DNA of 64,000 bases from an uncultured Verrucomicrobiae bacterium. Its GTDB lineage: Bacteria > Verrucomicrobiota > Verrucomicrobiia > Chthoniobacterales > JAATET01. The notes below the pieces were generated by a model that did not search any database, was not told where the DNA came from, and worked only from the letters and a program-made list of their open reading frames with translations. Both the position numbers and the translations under genes were made by a program. Location: NCBI GenBank assembly GCA_963719495.1, contig CAVRCI010000005.1, positions 172,002 to 236,001 of the forward strand, written 5' to 3'. Below, in pieces: positions 3,841-60,591 of the stretch. Each line of letters starts with the position of its first letter. Position 1 is the first letter of the stretch.

Positions 3841-3886
3841 CAACCTGTCATCCTGAGCGCAGCGAAGGATCTCTGGCATACACTCC
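3841..3886 (+). repeat. TGTCAT-hairpin repeat, copy 1 (solo)
   Basis: CAACCTGTCATCCTGAGCGCAGCGAAGGATCTCTGGCATACACTCC. Confidence 0.9.
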
Positions 3887-3891
3887 ACCCG

Positions 3892-3928
3892 CCACCATTC
3901 ACCATTCACCACTCACCACTCACCATTC
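3892..3928 (+). repeat. Heptamer tandem repeat (CACCATT/CACCACT)
   Basis: About 5 units read directly. Confidence 0.8.
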
Positions 3929-3971: not shown

Positions 3972-4892
3972 ATGGTCGCCTTCGTCATTCGCCGCCTCGC
4001 CGCCCTGGTCGTCGTCCTCTTCCTCGTCGTCTCCGCGACGTTTTTCCTCATCCGGCTCTCCCCCGGTGGTCCGTTCGACTCCGAGCGTAAGATCCCCGAA
4101 GCCATCGAGAAGCAGCTCCTCGCCAAATACAAACTCGACGGCACCCTCTGGCAGCAATACAGCGGCTACCTCGGCGATCTCGTTCGCGGCGACCTCCGGC
4201 TCTCGACCAAATACCGCAGCCGCTCCGTCAACGAGATTCTCGCCCAGACCCTTCCCGTCACGTTCGTCCTCGGCTCCGCGGCCTTCCTGATCGCGTCCAT
4301 CGGCGGCGTCTGGCTCGGAGCGTTCGCCGCCGTCCGCCACCACACCTGGGGCGACGCCGGCTCCATGCTCTTTGCCCTCCTCGCGATCTCGCTCCCCGCC
4401 TTCGTCACCGGCCCGCTCGCCATCCTCGTCTTCGCCCTCGGCCTCGGCTGGTTCCCCGTCGGCGGTTGGGGCGGCCTTTCCCACCTCGTCCTTCCCGCCA
4501 CCATCCTCGCCGCCCCCTACGTCGCCTACATCGCCCGCCTCATGCGCAGCAGTATGCTCGACACCCTGCACCAGGACTTCGTCCGCACCGCTTACGCCAA
4601 AGGCCTCGGAGCCCGCACCGTCCTCTACAAACACGCCCTCCGCGTCGCCATCCTCCCCGTCATCTCCTTTCTCGGCCCCCTCGCCGCCCACCTTCTCACC
4701 GGCTCCATCGTCGTCGAAACCATCTTCAACATCCCCGGAGCCGGCGGATTTTTCGTGAATTCGATCCAAAACCGAGACGGCTTCCTGCTCGGCGGCGTCG
4801 TCATCGTCTACTGCGTCCTGCTGGTCGTCTTCAACCTCATCGTCGACATTGCCTACACCCTGCTCGACCGGAGGATCGCACTCGATGGCTGA
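3972..4892 (+). CDS. oppB: Peptide ABC transporter permease OppB/DppB
   Basis: PGGPF N-terminal motif; EAA loop DFVRTAYAKGL; IVVETIFNIPG. Confidence 0.9.
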   Translation: MVAFVIRRLAALVVVLFLVVSATFFLIRLSPGGPFDSERKIPEAIEKQLLAKYKLDGTLWQQYSGYLGDLVRGDLRLSTKYRSRSVNEILAQTLPVTFVLGSAAFLIASIGGVWLGAFAAVRHHTWGDAGSMLFALLAISLPAFVTGPLAILVFALGLGWFPVGGWGGLSHLVLPATILAAPYVAYIARLMRSSMLDTLHQDFVRTAYAKGLGARTVLYKHALRVAILPVISFLGPLAAHLLTGSIVVETIFNIPGAGGFFVNSIQNRDGFLLGGVVIVYCVLLVVFNLIVDIAYTLLDRRIALDG

Positions 4893-5778
4893 TCCCCGCG
4901 CCTGGCGTCGCCTCCGCTCCAATCCCGTCGCCATCGCGTCCGCCGCGATCCTGACCTTCGTGGTCCTGGCGGCCATCTTCGGCCCGCTCTTCGTCCCGGA
5001 GTCCTACCGCGACCCCAGCACGCTCCAATACGCCGCGCCGTCCTGGGCGCACCCGTTCGGCACCGATCTCAACGGCCGCGACGTTCTCTACCGCGTCCTC
5101 ACCGGCACGCGCCTCTCCCTCATCGTCGGCCTCTGCGGAGCCGTCGTCAGTCTCTTCATCGGCACCGCCTACGGCCTGATCGCCGGCTACGTCGGCGGTC
5201 GCGTCGACGCCGCGATGATGCGATTCGTCGACGTCCTGTATTCCATCCCCCGCCTCATCTTCATCCTCATCGCGATCAACGCCTTCAACGGTTACCTCGA
5301 ACAATTCGCCGCCGAGCGCGGCTGGGATTGGTTCGTCGGCTACTCCCGCATTTTCATTCTCATCGTCTCCCTTGGCGTCATCGAATGGCTCACCATGGCC
5401 CGCATCGTCCGAGGCCAGGTCCTCGCATTGAAGACCCGCCAATACGTCCTCGCCGCTCGCTCCCTCGGCCAATCCCACTTCGCAATCCTCATCCGCCACC
5501 TCCTCCCGAACCTCCTGGGAATCATCATCATCTACCTCACCCTCACGATCCCCTCAGTCATCATCGACGAATCCTTCCTCTCCTTCCTGGGTCTGGGAAT
5601 CCAACCCCCCATGGCCAGCCTGGGCTCGCTCCTCGCCGATGGAGCCGGAGCGATCAATCCAGTGAGAAGCTTCTGGTGGATGATCGTCTTCCCCGCCGCC
5701 GCCATGGCCGCCACCCTCCTGGCGCTCAACTTCCTGGGCGACGCCCTGAGAGATGCCCTAGATCCAAGGGGCAAATAA
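4885..5778 (+). CDS. oppC: Peptide ABC transporter permease OppC/DppC
   Basis: HPFGTDLNGRD; YVLAARSLG; LSFLGLG; NFLGDALRDALDP; ATG at 4885 overlaps oppB end. Confidence 0.9.
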   Translation: MADPRAWRRLRSNPVAIASAAILTFVVLAAIFGPLFVPESYRDPSTLQYAAPSWAHPFGTDLNGRDVLYRVLTGTRLSLIVGLCGAVVSLFIGTAYGLIAGYVGGRVDAAMMRFVDVLYSIPRLIFILIAINAFNGYLEQFAAERGWDWFVGYSRIFILIVSLGVIEWLTMARIVRGQVLALKTRQYVLAARSLGQSHFAILIRHLLPNLLGIIIIYLTLTIPSVIIDESFLSFLGLGIQPPMASLGSLLADGAGAINPVRSFWWMIVFPAAAMAATLLALNFLGDALRDALDPRGK

Positions 5779-5806: not shown

Positions 5807-5856
5807 CAACCTGTCATTCTGAGCGAAGCGAAGAATCTCTGGCATACACTCCTCAC
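5807..5856 (+). repeat. TGTCAT-hairpin repeat, copy 2 (left flank of GIY-YIG gene)
   Basis: CAACCTGTCATTCTGAGCGAAGCGAAGAATCTCTGGCATACACTCCTCAC. Confidence 0.9.
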
Positions 5857-5859
5857 TCC

Positions 5860-6210
5860 ATGCGCGACCACGACTACTGGGTCTACATCCTCACCAACAA
5901 AAGCCAATCGACCCTCTACACCGGCGTAACCAGCCAACTCGGCGTCCGCCTAGCCCAGCACAAAACCGGCGAAAAGCCCGGCTTCACCACCCGCTACCAC
6001 CTAGACCGCCTCGTCTGGTTCGAGCACTTCCGAGACATCCGCGACGCCATCACCTGCGAAAAGCGCCTTAAAGGCTGGCGACGGGAACGAAAGATCGAGG
6101 TGATCGAGCGAACGAACCCAAAGTGGCACGACCTGAGCCGGGACCTCTACGAAGAGCCGCCTGTCCCACCTGCGGAGAACGACGCCGAATATCTGTGGAC
6201 GAGAGTGTAA
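5860..6210 (+). CDS. Stand-alone GIY-YIG nuclease family protein, 116 aa
   Basis: WVYIL...LYTGVT..L..RL.QH...FT.RY....LVWFE...A...EKRLKGW.R..K...I...NP.W.DL; catalytic-type R and E present. Confidence 0.92.
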   Translation: MRDHDYWVYILTNKSQSTLYTGVTSQLGVRLAQHKTGEKPGFTTRYHLDRLVWFEHFRDIRDAITCEKRLKGWRRERKIEVIERTNPKWHDLSRDLYEEPPVPPAENDAEYLWTRV

Positions 6211-6242
6211 GCCAGAGATCTTTCGCTTCGCTCAAGATGACA
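6201..6242 (-). repeat. TGTCAT-hairpin repeat, copy 3 (inverted right flank; contains the gene's TAA stop)
   Basis: Reverse complement TGTCATCTTGAGCGAAGCGAAAGATCTCTGGCTTACACTCTC. Confidence 0.9.
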
Positions 6243-6283
6243 TAATTAAGAGGGGATCCCGGAGGTCGCGAAAGCGTGTCGTC

Positions 6284-6336
6284 CAACCTGTCATGCTGAG
6301 CGAAGCGAAGCATCTCTGGCTGACACTCCTCACCGC
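6284..6336 (+). repeat. TGTCAT-hairpin repeat, copy 4
   Basis: CAACCTGTCATGCTGAGCGAAGCGAAGCATCTCTGGCTGACACTCCTCACCGC. Confidence 0.9.
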
Positions 6337-6383
6337 CCGGCACCACCCCAACCGCCGCCACGCCTGACACCACCCCCTGCCCC

Positions 6384-7439
6384 CTACCCCCGCATCCCCG
6401 GCAAAATCGCCGGCAAAATCTCATCCAACTCATCCACCACCACAAAATCCCCCGGCTTGCTCATCGTCCGAATCATCGCAATCACCGAATCCCAAAACGC
6501 CACCCCCTCCGCGTTCTTTCGGTTGAAAACCACCACCGGCTTCCCCTCCATCAGCGCGTTCCCCTGATGCTTGAAGATCATCAAAGCCAGCAGCTCCTGC
6601 ACCGTCCCCGCCCCGCCCGGGAAGATCACGAACGCGTCCGAATTTTCGATCATCACCTCCATCCGGGTGTAAATGTCCGGCCGCAGCCAGAAGCACGACA
6701 GCCCGTCCGGAAGCCCTTCCAGCCGAATGATGTGCGGCACGTTCGAACCCGCCGTCCAGCCCCCCGCCTTCACCGCCCCCCGCACCACCGCGCCCATGAT
6801 CCCCGACCGCCCTGCCCCGGAAACGCAACCAATCTTGTTCTCAGCTAAAATCCGACCCAATGCCTCACCGTCGGCCAAATAATTCGGCTCATCCAAGGAA
6901 GCCGAACAGAACACGCAGGCGCTCCCGATGTAGTCCGCGGGAATTGGCGTCTCCATGATCGTCACCTCGGCGTCCTCGAATTTGTGCCGCCCCGCCTCCG
7001 GATGCCCGGTCATCCGAATGAGATCCAGCTGCTCGAGCACCGCTTCCGCCGAGTCGACCATGTGCAGATACAGGTCATACTCCTGCTGCACGGTCCCCAT
7101 CGCTTTCAGATGCGCCAGCACGTCAAAGAGCGAATCCCACGACCCGTCTTCGTTGAGAATCACCGTCGGCTTGCCAGCCAAATTCTGATCCAGCGTTTGA
7201 AACCCCACGAAGATCGAGATCGCCTTGAACATGTCCTCGAGCGTCGCCCCCGGAGTGAACACGAACGCGTCCGACTCGATGATCTTCTTCTCGATGTTCG
7301 CCAGCGATATCCGCTGATCCCCATTCGAATTGTAAATGTCCCACCCCTTCGCAAACAGGAGGTAAAGCAGGCGGGCGCGGGAAGCCCGGTTTGGGTCATC
7401 CGCACCCGTCACCGTCCCGGAGAGTCTAATTTTTGGCAT
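6384..7439 (-). CDS. LOG-family (nucleotide phosphoribohydrolase-like) protein with extra degenerate N-terminal LOG-like domain
   Basis: CVFCSAS...SGAGRSGIMGAV...R...SDAFVIFPGGAGTVQEL; N-half repeats SDAFVFTPG. Confidence 0.8.
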   Translation of the reverse strand: MPKIRLSGTVTGADDPNRASRARLLYLLFAKGWDIYNSNGDQRISLANIEKKIIESDAFVFTPGATLEDMFKAISIFVGFQTLDQNLAGKPTVILNEDGSWDSLFDVLAHLKAMGTVQQEYDLYLHMVDSAEAVLEQLDLIRMTGHPEAGRHKFEDAEVTIMETPIPADYIGSACVFCSASLDEPNYLADGEALGRILAENKIGCVSGAGRSGIMGAVVRGAVKAGGWTAGSNVPHIIRLEGLPDGLSCFWLRPDIYTRMEVMIENSDAFVIFPGGAGTVQELLALMIFKHQGNALMEGKPVVVFNRKNAEGVAFWDSVIAMIRTMSKPGDFVVVDELDEILPAILPGMRG

Positions 7440-7636: not shown

Positions 7637-9598
<1,962 letters not shown>

Positions 9599-13928: not shown

Positions 13929-14024
13929 CGCGAGCTTCCAGGGGACCGCGAGCTTCCAGGGGACCGCGAGCTTCCAGGGGACCGCGAGCTTCCAGCTCGC
14001 AGTGTCGAGCTTCCAGCTCGGCAC
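13929..14024 (+). repeat. 18-bp tandem repeat x3 running into a double-hairpin REP-like unit
   Basis: (CGCGAGCTTCCAGGGGAC)x3 then GCGAGC-TTCCA-GCTCGC and GTGTCGAGC-TTCCA-GCTCGGCAC. Confidence 0.9.
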
Positions 14025-26004: not shown

Positions 26005-26130
26005 TGTCATGTTGAGCAAAGCGAAACATCTCTGACTTCTCACCGCATCTCATCGGCAAACGAAGCGCCCTGCTCCCTGCGTCGGTCGCAAAGCGTGAGC
26101 CAGAGATCCTTCACCCCGTTCAGGATGACA
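26005..26130. repeat. Gene-less inverted pair of TGTCAT-hairpin repeats (copies 5 and 6)
   Basis: TGTCATGTTGAGCAAAGCGAAACATCTCTGAC (+) ... reverse complement TGTCATCCTGAACGGGGTGAAGGATCTCTGGCTCAC. Confidence 0.88.
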
Positions 26131-33857: not shown

Positions 33858-33965
33858 CTGTCATGTTGAGCAAAGCGAAACATCTCTGGCTCCTCACCGC
33901 ATCCCGGCGACAGGCGCGGTTAGTAAGTATAAGCCAGAGATGCTTCGCTTCGCTCAGCATGACAG
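33858..33965. repeat. Gene-less inverted pair of TGTCAT-hairpin repeats (copies 7 and 8)
   Basis: CTGTCATGTTGAGCAAAGCGAAACATCTCTGGC (+) ... GCCAGAGATGCTTCGCTTCGCTCAGCATGACAG. Confidence 0.9.
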
Positions 33966-42567: not shown

Positions 42568-42639
42568 AGAAAAGCCGTGAATATGCCTCTCACCAAGAGC
42601 GCTGACAAGTGCGGCCACCCTCCAAACGCATTCCACCAT

Positions 42640-42744
42640 TCACCATTGACTCGCTGGCTCCCGCTCGTCTCGCCCTTCGGGCACCATCGCAAAGCCGATG
42701 GCGTCTGCCCCGAGGCTACCCAGCCTCCGGTGCTCACTGATCAC
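42640..42744. repeat. 105-bp structured repeat, copy A
   Basis: Aligns ungapped with 54463-54567. Confidence 0.9.
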
Positions 42745-48136: not shown

Positions 48137-48161
48137 GCGAAACATCTCTGGCTTCTCACCG
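48137..48161 (+). repeat. 3' half copy of TGTCAT-hairpin repeat
   Basis: GCGAAACATCTCTGGCTTCTCACCG. Confidence 0.75.
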
Positions 48162-48177
48162 AACCCAACCCGACCAC

Positions 48178-49310: not shown

Positions 49311-49355
49311 CAACCTGTCATGCTGAGCAAAGCGAAGCATCTCTGGCTTCTCACC
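49311..49355 (+). repeat. TGTCAT-hairpin repeat, copy 9 (solo)
   Basis: CAACCTGTCATGCTGAGCAAAGCGAAGCATCTCTGGCTTCTCACC. Confidence 0.9.
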
Positions 49356-49380
49356 CACATGAAAATCGTCGTCACCACGA

Positions 49381-53810: not shown

Positions 53811-54469
53811 CCTCGTCTGTCGTAAGCGGTTCGAATCTGCCGGAGCAACCGCGCCTCCTTGATCCCGTGAAACGCGTAACCGCCCCGGGAAGCACGCCGA
53901 ATCGCCACGGCCTTTTCTTTCTTCGACCGAATCGTATTCCGCGAAAACCCCTCCCGCAAGGCCCGCAAATCATGGATTTGAATCCCCAGCCGCTCGGCCT
54001 GACACCACATCCACCGATCCACAAAACCCCGCTGAAAAGGCTCGAAAGTCGCCCCCTTGACGAAGCTCCGAAGCGACCCCGCGTCGAAGATCCACGGAAA
54101 ATGCGCGTAATGCGTTCCCGCCAGATCAGCCAGTCGATTCTTGAACACATTCCCCTGCACCCCCACCCGCTCCACCGGCCGCCGCAGTAAAAACGCGTCG
54201 TATTCCACGAAAACGTAAAAGTCCGCCGCCACCTCGAGACTGTGCCGCATCCCCGCCAGCTGCCGCTTCAAGCACTCCGCCCCGTATTTGTTCGAGAGCC
54301 CCGTCGCAAACGTCCGCGTCCCCGGCAACCGGTTCGGCGAATCCTCCGGGAAGACCACGATCACTTCGTCCGAAGCCGCCCTCCACACCGGCAAATGCCG
54401 CTCCACCACCGCCTGCCCCCCCGCATAACTAAAAACCGTCGTTAAAACCCGCATTCCACTAATCACCAT
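53807..54469 (-). CDS. Hypothetical protein, possible GT-A fold
   Basis: YVFVEYDAF; C-terminal FHGIK; overlaps downstream start. Confidence 0.5.
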   Translation of the reverse strand: MVISGMRVLTTVFSYAGGQAVVERHLPVWRAASDEVIVVFPEDSPNRLPGTRTFATGLSNKYGAECLKRQLAGMRHSLEVAADFYVFVEYDAFLLRRPVERVGVQGNVFKNRLADLAGTHYAHFPWIFDAGSLRSFVKGATFEPFQRGFVDRWMWCQAERLGIQIHDLRALREGFSRNTIRSKKEKAVAIRRASRGGYAFHGIKEARLLRQIRTAYDRRG

Positions 54470-54567
54470 TGACTTGCTAGCTCCCGCTCGTCTCGCCCTC
54501 CGAGCACCATCGCAGAGCCGATGGTGTCGGCCCCGCGGCTTCCCAGCCGCCGGTGCTCACCAATCAC
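54463..54567. repeat. 105-bp structured repeat, copy B
   Basis: Aligns with 42640-42744. Confidence 0.9.
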
Positions 54568-59686: not shown

Positions 59687-59738
59687 AACCTGTCATGTTG
59701 AGCGAAGCGAAACATCTCTGGCTCACACTCCTCACCGC
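59687..59738 (+). repeat. TGTCAT-hairpin repeat, copy 10 (solo)
   Basis: AACCTGTCATGTTGAGCGAAGCGAAACATCTCTGGCTCACACTCCTCACCGC. Confidence 0.9.
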
Positions 59739-59787
59739 CACAAAACCCACAGTCATCAAACACCGATCACGCCCCGCAATCCGTCAC

Positions 59788-59832
59788 CCACCATTCACCA
59801 TTCACCATTCACCAATCACCAATCACCAATCA
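59788..59832 (+). repeat. Heptamer tandem repeat (CACCATT/CACCAAT)
   Basis: About 6 units read directly. Confidence 0.8.
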
Positions 59833-60591
59833 AGAAACCCCACCCTCCACCTTCCGGTAATCCCCCCGGCTGAAATACTTCTCCAGCCACACGTAGAGAC
59901 AAATGAACAAATACCGGCTCCCCATCTCCTTGATCTTCAACTTCGCCTCGCCCGACCGCCGGTTCCGCCAAGTGATCGGCACCACCGTCCAGGTGTAACC
60001 CCGCGTGATCGCCTTCAGCGGGATCTCCACCGTCAGGTTGAAATGCGGTGCCAGCAACGGCCGACACCCCTCGATCACCGTCCGCCGGTAAGCCTTGAAC
60101 GCGTTCGTTGTGTCGTTGAGCTTCACCGAGAACAGCCGCTTGATGAACTGATTCGCCATCCGGTTGAGCAGCAATTTCACCCGCGGGTAATCGATCACCC
60201 CGCCCCCTTTCATAAACCGGCTGCCAAAGACGCAGTCCCACCCCTCGTTCAACAGCGTCCAATACCGCACCACGTCTCGGCAATCATCCGACTCGTCCGC
60301 CATCATGATCACCACCGCGTCCCCCCGCATCACGTCCAGCCCCCGGATGATCGCCCGACCGAACCCGTGCAGCTCCGTATTCTGAACCGGAGCCAATTCC
60401 GGAATCCGCTCCCGCAATTTCGTCAGCACCTCCCACGTCCGGTCCGAGCTCCCATCGTCCACCACCACGATCTCGTGCGGCACGCCGTGCAGCGATAGCT
60501 CCAAGTGCAGGTGCTCCACCGTCAACGGCACCGCGACCTCCTCATCCCGCGCCGGAATGACGATCGACAACAACTTCAGCGGTTCACCCAT
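59830..60591 (-). CDS. GT2 (DPM1-like) glycosyltransferase
   Basis: VIPARDE, DDGSSD, MADESD, FGSRF, DTTNAFKAY. Confidence 0.9.
   Translation of the reverse strand: MGEPLKLLSIVIPARDEEVAVPLTVEHLHLELSLHGVPHEIVVVDDGSSDRTWEVLTKLRERIPELAPVQNTELHGFGRAIIRGLDVMRGDAVVIMMADESDDCRDVVRYWTLLNEGWDCVFGSRFMKGGGVIDYPRVKLLLNRMANQFIKRLFSVKLNDTTNAFKAYRRTVIEGCRPLLAPHFNLTVEIPLKAITRGYTWTVVPITWRNRRSGEAKLKIKEMGSRYLFICLYVWLEKYFSRGDYRKVEGGVS

Follow-up and report, generated by a model that had tools for sequence, protein, structure and literature searches.

A putative Ssn-family GIY-YIG nuclease gene bracketed by inverted copies of a TGTC-tagged, G-A-mismatched hairpin repeat in a verrucomicrobial genome

Introduction

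The Ssn family comprises single-domain GIY-YIG proteins (cd10448) whose genes are flanked by GTC-tagged hairpins (PMC11893778, Chenal et al. 2025). Ssn enzymes cut single-stranded DNA (ssDNA) only, on one strand only and within a few bases on the 5' side of the hairpin, and recognition of their own repeats, with cutting in vitro, has been demonstrated biochemically for four homologues (PMC11893778). SsnA needs the three bases that precede the stem in order to cut and the C that follows it in order to bind; in vivo, the family has been shown to act only in the restriction of ssDNA, by SsnA during Neisseria transformation (PMC11893778). The NTS-ssnA-NTS arrangement was likened to insertion sequences and to TnpA-REP, and its domestication was proposed (PMC11893778). 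The published SRM pattern is found near only 71% of Ssn homologues, and Chthoniobacter flavus and Opitutus terrae are tabulated as having an ssnA homologue and no SRM enrichment (0.96- and 0.59-fold) (PMC11893778, table). Because these two species have the homologue without the enrichment, the repeats of Verrucomicrobiota were probably missed.

A second described group of hairpin repeats is the CGTC-tagged REPs. In the portion of Di Nocera et al. (2013, PMC3733652) considered here, TGTC is listed as a tag variant, four CGTC REP families have stems of 8 to 9 bp, loops of 4 to 5 nt and mostly CCA tails, the repeats are reported from five phyla with Verrucomicrobia not among them, and a dedicated transposase was looked for and not found. 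An associated enzyme for the CGTC-1/dRS3 type was supplied later by the Ssn paper (PMC11893778).

Here we analyze a GIY-YIG gene and its flanking repeats in a 64-kb stretch of DNA from an uncultured Verrucomicrobiae bacterium (referred to throughout as the window), together with the host genome (4.54 Mb in 16 contigs) and related genomes. The link between gene and repeat is already published as Ssn/NTS-SRM, and the locus is a variant within this known system. What is new is a repeat type outside the SRM pattern, its G-A-mismatched, covarying stem with a mini-hairpin, and a 15-member protein clade that keeps the cassette.

Results

A GIY-YIG gene lies between inverted repeat copies

The initial annotation of the window placed a 116-aa GIY-YIG gene between a forward repeat that ends 3 nt before the ATG and an inverted repeat that supplies the TAA stop, with a third copy about 40 nt farther on, and the locus is indeed built in this way. 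The upstream copy (5808..5856, + strand) is made up of an A/C-rich leader, the TGTC tag, a 21-nt hairpin, the conserved C and a tail, with the tag pointing outward and the tail pointing to the gene. When the shared tail is counted, this copy ends 3 nt ahead of the ATG at 5860, and the distance from its tag to the ATG is 47 nt. The gene (5860..6210, + strand) encodes a putative Ssn-type single-domain GIY-YIG nuclease of 116 aa, and its stop codon (6208-6210) sits inside the tail of the inverted copy that forms the closing end of the cassette (6203..6242, - strand). The third copy (6285..6337, + strand) starts at 6285-6289, 42 to 46 nt past the inverted copy, with which it is arranged tag to tag outside the cassette. 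Host genes outside the element flank the locus, with an OppC-type peptide ABC permease on the left (4849..5778, + strand) and a LOG/SLOG-family gene on the right (6384..7439, - strand).

Every other copy that had been listed for the window was recovered. Three are solo copies on the + strand, at 3842..3894 (tag at 3847), 49312..49364 (tag at 49317) and 59687..59739 (tag at 59692). Two pairs form gene-less inward doublets, which measure 123 nt (26006..26129) and 103 nt (33860..33963) from tag to tag, and a half copy at 48137..48166 (+ strand) retains the 3' arm and tail and has lost the tag. The window contains 10 matches to the repeat pattern, whereas 20 simulated windows contain 0.05 on average.

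Other repeats are present in the same stretch. Short intergenic tandem repeats with 7-nt and 18-nt units are found at 3881-3928, 9191-9227, 13929-13995 and 59763-59838, two of the four directly behind solo hairpin-repeat copies, and a 118-nt direct repeat, 88% identical between its copies, occupies 42627-42744 and 54450-54567.

The repeat has a covarying stem with fixed G-A mismatches

Across the host genome, the TGTC-tagged repeat has 228 matches at ≤3 mismatches (0 in the reversed genome), and a profile search returned 218 copies at E < 0.01. The unit runs from an A/C-rich leader through TGTC, the 21-nt hairpin ATNNTGARCRNAGYGAANNAT and a single C to a CTCTGG tail. It is no simple palindrome, which corrects the earlier picture: the stem consists of five Watson-Crick pairs, two fixed G-A mismatches and two further pairs, closed by a 3-nt loop that is mostly GNA. 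The two mismatches, G-A and A-G, are found in 201 and 207 of 210 copies, and the A-T and T-A pairs at the stem base in 189 and 186 of 210. Three variable stem positions are paired in 186, 194 and 207 of 210 copies, versus 78, 105 and 152 expected by chance, although the copies are related and these counts are hence not independent events. The bases outside the stem are similarly constant: the G, T and C ahead of it are present in 209, 206 and 206 of 209 copies, a T precedes them in 202 of 209, and the C behind the stem is present in 208 of 209.

The loop end reads GCGNAGC in 135 of 210 copies, 117 of which have GCGAAGC. In the part of PMC13037366 considered here, the d(GCGNAGC) mini-hairpin is described as having a sheared G-A pair and unusual stability, with a fold that conventional folding models do not capture. 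The loop end of these 135 copies is like that mini-hairpin; it differs in that here the motif would sit on top of an extended stem that has additional G-A mismatches and belongs to a dispersed repeat. From the sequence, we infer that the tag strand alone folds into a tandem-G-A stem with a GCGNAGC cap, and that the complement, with T-C mismatches and a TTC loop, cannot. When the hairpin was folded with ViennaRNA, its stability was not above that of shuffled sequences (z of 0.2 to 1.4), which counts against our account.

We also compared the repeat with the published SRM pattern. None of the 228 copies matches it, and of 210 copies none does so within 1 mismatch and 91 do so within 2; the pattern's 39 hits in the host genome (22 in the reversed control) include none on a repeat copy. 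What sets the hairpin apart from the published SRM is its pair of fixed G-A mismatches and its GNA loop of 3 nt. This misfit excludes the repeat from the literal definition but not the protein from the family, since the pattern accompanies only part of the known homologues. The repeat's core words were not found in the searchable text of the 14 supplementary files of PMC11893778.

Several variants of the repeat were seen. One subtype, found at 25 sites (for example C13:540066-540207), has a conserved insert of ~44 nt in the 3' stem arm; the insert has a short inverted repeat of its own and explains most doublets of 136 to 148 nt. Arrays are formed by seven copies mostly about 280 nt apart (C2:177485-179066), by four copies 105 nt apart (C8:131854-132209) and by four alternating doublets about 204 nt apart (C11:54961-55670). 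A divergent subtype is present as tag-to-tag pairs (C2:782255-782374, C3:47979-48098 and C7 near 160500) with identical flanks at several sites, and these pairs are perhaps part of a larger repeated element. The possibility that solos are decayed doublets was rejected, as an inverted tail remnant was found in only 7 of 106 solos.

The protein groups with SRM-flanked GIY-YIG proteins

GIY-YIG (PF01541, E of 2.5e-14) is the sole Pfam match of the 116-aa protein, and no NCBIfam family was matched. The active-site residues Y9, Y20, R30, H34 and E67 are intact. Across 20 aligned sequences, Y9 and Y20 are invariant and E67 is at least 90% conserved, and the spacing of Y9, Y20 and E67 (11 and 47 residues) equals that of Y6, Y17 and E64 in SsnA. 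The predicted structure has a beta-beta-alpha-alpha-beta-alpha core with the GIY-YIG fold (core mean pLDDT of 85.7), and its best fold matches are UPF0213, Slx1 and the UvrC N-terminal domain.

Among the loci examined, 15 have a published-pattern SRM within ≤500 nt of the gene (two of the 15 adjoin an NTS match), and the window protein aligns to all 15 of their products with 46 to 53% identity (E of 4e-27 to 5e-32; 74 to 91% coverage). In a tree, the protein and these 15 SRM-flanked proteins fall in one 61-row group apart from weak GIY-YIG hits, with support of only 83/88. It is through these relatives that we assign the protein at the sequence level to the Ssn family as a putative nuclease. 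Like SsnA of Neisseria meningitidis, it is a single-domain GIY-YIG protein of about 100 aa with the same catalytic spacing, its gene has a GTC-tagged hairpin followed by C on both the 5' and the 3' side, and the repeat has hundreds of intergenic copies. The initial proposal that this GIY-YIG subfamily recognizes a dRS3/CGTC-like hairpin is supported by homology; as a novelty it does not stand, since such recognition is published for four homologues (PMC11893778).

Gene and repeat are associated across genomes

The arrangement recurs at close homologues, as had been anticipated for a dedicated gene-repeat pair. A genome collection gave 30 loci: this repeat lies within ≤500 nt at 15 of them and GTC-tagged hairpins of other types at 5, and nothing of either kind was detected at the other 10. 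The window protein and 14 relatives form a clade (support of 98/88) in which the repeat is present on both sides within ≤500 nt at 15 of 15 loci, and at none beyond 1 kb. The upstream tag lies 42 to 47 nt ahead of the start codon at 13 of 14 loci, including the window, and 42 to 45 nt ahead at 12 of the 13 closest. Repeat type tracks protein clade, with other homologues carrying other GTC-tagged hairpins. At 28 more distant loci of the class, the repeat was found on both sides at 11, on one side at 3 and on neither at 14 (≤300 nt; four of the loci have short flanks).

In 8 of 10 other cassettes inspected, the ORF reads through the inverted copy and so ends in RDSSLRSE or a near variant. At these loci (L014, L015, L021, L023, L027, L017, L213 and L214), the inverted repeat encodes RDSSLRSE and a TGA stop; the window ORF ends earlier than these read-through relatives, at the TAA within the repeat tail.

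Gene presence was also found to track the repeat in a survey of 301 genomes of the class, in which a genome was scored as repeat positive by an exact repeat match, counts were tallied by hand and scoring covered up to 15 candidates per genome. We found the gene in 28 of 56 repeat-positive genomes versus 11 of 245 repeat-negative ones, or, with the dominant family (f26) removed, in 12 of 24 versus 11 of 243; related genomes in these tallies are not independent, and some gene matches contain stops. Where a genome has at least 80 copies, the gene was always found (4 of 4), and with at least 10 copies it was found in 18 of 27. Two results count against the account: among up to 15 candidates scored per genome, no gene was found in half of the repeat-positive class genomes, and none of the Ssn family was found in one genome (G044) with 40 exact copies.

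These data bear on the explanation that the repeats are RNA elements, such as terminators or stabilizers, and that the gene encodes a generic flap or repair nuclease bracketed by chance. The repeat copies lie outside predicted genes in 227 of 228 cases, few of them fall between divergent genes (14 of the 225 copies that were placed, versus 487 of 2,286 gaps), and UPF0213 and Slx1 are the nearest solved structures, all of which would fit such elements and such an enzyme. However, solo copies between co-directional genes do not follow transcription (48 versus 40), no Rfam family matches the repeat at the gathering score (three weak matches fall far below it), and the sequence similarity of the protein to UPF0213 is weak (E of 0.008) relative to that to SRM-flanked proteins (E below 1e-26). 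Of the 3,530 genes that a simple, purpose-written caller predicted in the host genome, just the nuclease gene has an inward-facing repeat pair ≤150 nt from both ends; eight others have copies on both sides in orientations other than inward. The bracket is kept throughout the clade. This conserved bracketing largely refutes the RNA-element explanation, which we consider highly improbable.

Cassettes have moved, recently within one chromosome

In three congeners (G001, G003 and G004), the gap between the oppC-type and LOG-type genes is 83 to 89 nt and has no repeat, compared with about 605 nt here, so that an empty counterpart of the filled site, of the kind suggested at the outset as worth looking for, does exist. 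The remaining two of the five congeners have a different gene after oppC. The nuclease gene was not found in any of the 16 other genomes of the family, in which the repeat has 0 to 9 copies each versus 166 in the host genome. Gain of the cassette at the window site is the simpler reading. Loss and decay in the congeners is possible, since four of the five keep a few copies of the same-subtype repeat without the gene, and flank-gene trees did not settle the order of gain and loss at this site.

Further evidence comes from a single-contig genome (G071, from the family of locus L033), in which nine cassettes at nine distant loci (L203-L211) are 96.4 to 100% identical. Five are 388 to 389 nt long, two are 342 nt and two are 252 nt, the latter four being internally deleted, and their hairpin differs from that of the window repeat. 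An Ssn cassette has thus spread recently within one chromosome. The nine cassettes share about 10 nt to the left and 17 nt to the right beyond the tags, and all lie within members of a second palindromic repeat family (GCGGAC/GTCCGC). This embedding suggests that the cassettes prefer such targets or that the second family carries them, and such carriage would count against our account. Cassettes are thus mobile, but none of these results demonstrates that the nuclease moves them.

The embedding is one of the observations that fit a passenger or relic, in which the cassette would be cargo carried between two repeat copies, the repeat would be mobilized by some different enzyme, lost or unlinked, and the protein would no longer act on it. 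Many homologues elsewhere contain stops, and most clade members extend farther into the repeat tail than the window protein does, both in line with such a reading. The protein nevertheless keeps all of its catalytic residues in a core that folds confidently, the type of repeat follows the protein clade, and in vitro cleavage by four homologues of the repeats that belong to them is published (PMC11893778). On this evidence, we regard a passenger or relic as improbable.

A further explanation is a domesticated role in ssDNA restriction only, with the Ssn protein cutting repeat-bearing ssDNA that enters the cell or becomes exposed and the repeats spreading by recombination or through another enzyme. 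Restriction is the role shown in vivo (PMC11893778), and the genomes that have repeats and in which no gene was found are many. The host genome has no second homologue of the nuclease gene, and this single copy counts against a spreading account. The 48 inward gene-less doublets of the host genome (96 copies) show no recurring target-site duplication, and the genome offers other candidates in its 12 Y1-transposase (PF01797) matches and its dozens of other high-copy repeat families. Restriction only would, however, leave unexplained the fixed inward bracketing of the gene, the doublets, which have the geometry of the cassette and a fixed length (28 of 48 span 90 to 104 nt tag to tag), and the nine recent cassettes in G071 with their deletion derivatives. 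As for another enzyme, no Y1 gene is near the repeat: we examined a Y1 transposase as a local partner and discarded it, as 0 of the 12 PF01797 matches lie within 2.5 kb of a copy. Six of these 12 matches are in ORFs of 315 to 356 aa. Restriction as the sole function therefore strikes us as rather unlikely, though less so than a passenger or relic. A search of the literature, which covered few of the subscription journals, turned up no later study in which Ssn drives mobility.

The strand bias of solo copies is not specific to this repeat

In 95 of 106 strict solos, the tag is on the C-rich strand, which is probably the leading-strand template because the genes for 16S rRNA and ribosomal protein L3 are on the G-rich strand. 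Conservation does not differ between the arms of doublets (p of 0.65), so uneven decay does not explain this bias. In the parts of the sources considered here, leading-strand-template orientation limits the folding of integron attC sites (PMC5371416), and the orientation of the solo copies is opposite to that of IS200/IS605 (PMC5027513). As Ssn-specific evidence, the bias was rejected, since many unrelated repeat families of the host genome are just as polar (127/132, 68/69 and 0/56 loci). Elsewhere, the tag is on the same strand at 12 of 14 copies in congeners, at 6 of 15 in genome G030 and with mixed signs in G453, the last two genomes having weak skew.

The host genome contains dozens of high-copy intergenic repeat families, many of them near one-stranded relative to GC skew (one at 5/126 loci) and some unbiased (12/25 and 10/20 loci). 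GC skew reaches 0.2 to 0.3 in many 50-kb bins, and dnaA and parS-like sites (C13:404342, 451392-481706 and 665087) lie 180 to 260 kb from the cumulative GC-skew minimum.

Discussion

The locus can be compared with two further kinds of hairpin repeat. As far as the considered portion of PMC3733652 describes them, CGTC REPs share with this repeat an unpaired tag that may be TGTC, AT at the start of the stem, a short unpaired tail, an intergenic location and frequent heterodimers. By the definition given there, the repeat has both the tag (CGTC, TGTC or CCTC) and the AT stem base of a CGTC REP but departs from the stem of 8 to 9 bp, loop of 4 to 5 nt and CCA-type tail, having 5 + 2 pairs, a 3-nt loop and CTCTGG. 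The layout also resembles the REPtron of RAYT/TnpA-REP genes, with one gene between inverted hairpin repeats in addition to solos, gene-less doublets of fixed length and arrays; the initial annotation drew this parallel, which agrees with the analogy made in PMC11893778. Unlike a RAYT, however, the enzyme is a GIY-YIG protein without an HUH/Y1 domain, its gene is not among the PF01797 matches of the genome, and the tag is TGTC rather than the GTAG of REPtrons.

We think it fairly probable that the locus is an Ssn repeat-gene-repeat cassette whose nuclease binds the ssDNA hairpin, cuts 5' of the tag and helps in the build-up of the repeat. The parts of this account differ in strength. By homology, the protein very probably binds the hairpin that the tag strand forms as ssDNA, and makes its cut directly 5' of the tag. 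It would bind its own TGTC-tagged hairpin only in single-stranded form and would cut a few bases 5' of the tag, with the specificity for ssDNA and for one strand carried over by analogy from SsnA. With the tags pointing outward, cutting would take place at the outer borders of cassettes and doublets, immediately beyond the left end on one strand and immediately beyond the right end on the other; this is the least secure step. The nuclease likely helped the repeat to reach about 220 copies in the host genome.

GIY-YIG enzymes are hydrolases that act without a covalent tyrosine-DNA step and do not rejoin strands through a tyrosine link. Copying would accordingly depend on repair or recombination by the host, not on strand transfer of the RAYT kind. 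A more far-reaching version, which we put forward tentatively and with less than even confidence, is that Ssn is the missing mobilizing enzyme of CGTC/TGTC repeats, with hydrolytic cuts at the outer edges, host repair that copies the cassette and the 93-nt doublets, and, in the present lineage, a non-canonical G-A-paired mini-hairpin as the structure that is read.

The published SRM search does not detect repeats of this type, so the census of Ssn proteins and their repeats is incomplete. As a candidate site-specific ssDNA nuclease, the enzyme would have another target, based on a mini-hairpin with G-A pairs. The question of what spreads CGTC-type repeats arises from the work of Di Nocera et al. 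(PMC3733652, in the portion considered here) and Chenal et al. (PMC11893778), and the host genome and G071 provide concrete substrates and junctions with which to ask whether Ssn spreads them. If Ssn were the mobilizing enzyme, these cassettes would represent a GIY-YIG-driven class of prokaryotic mobile element.
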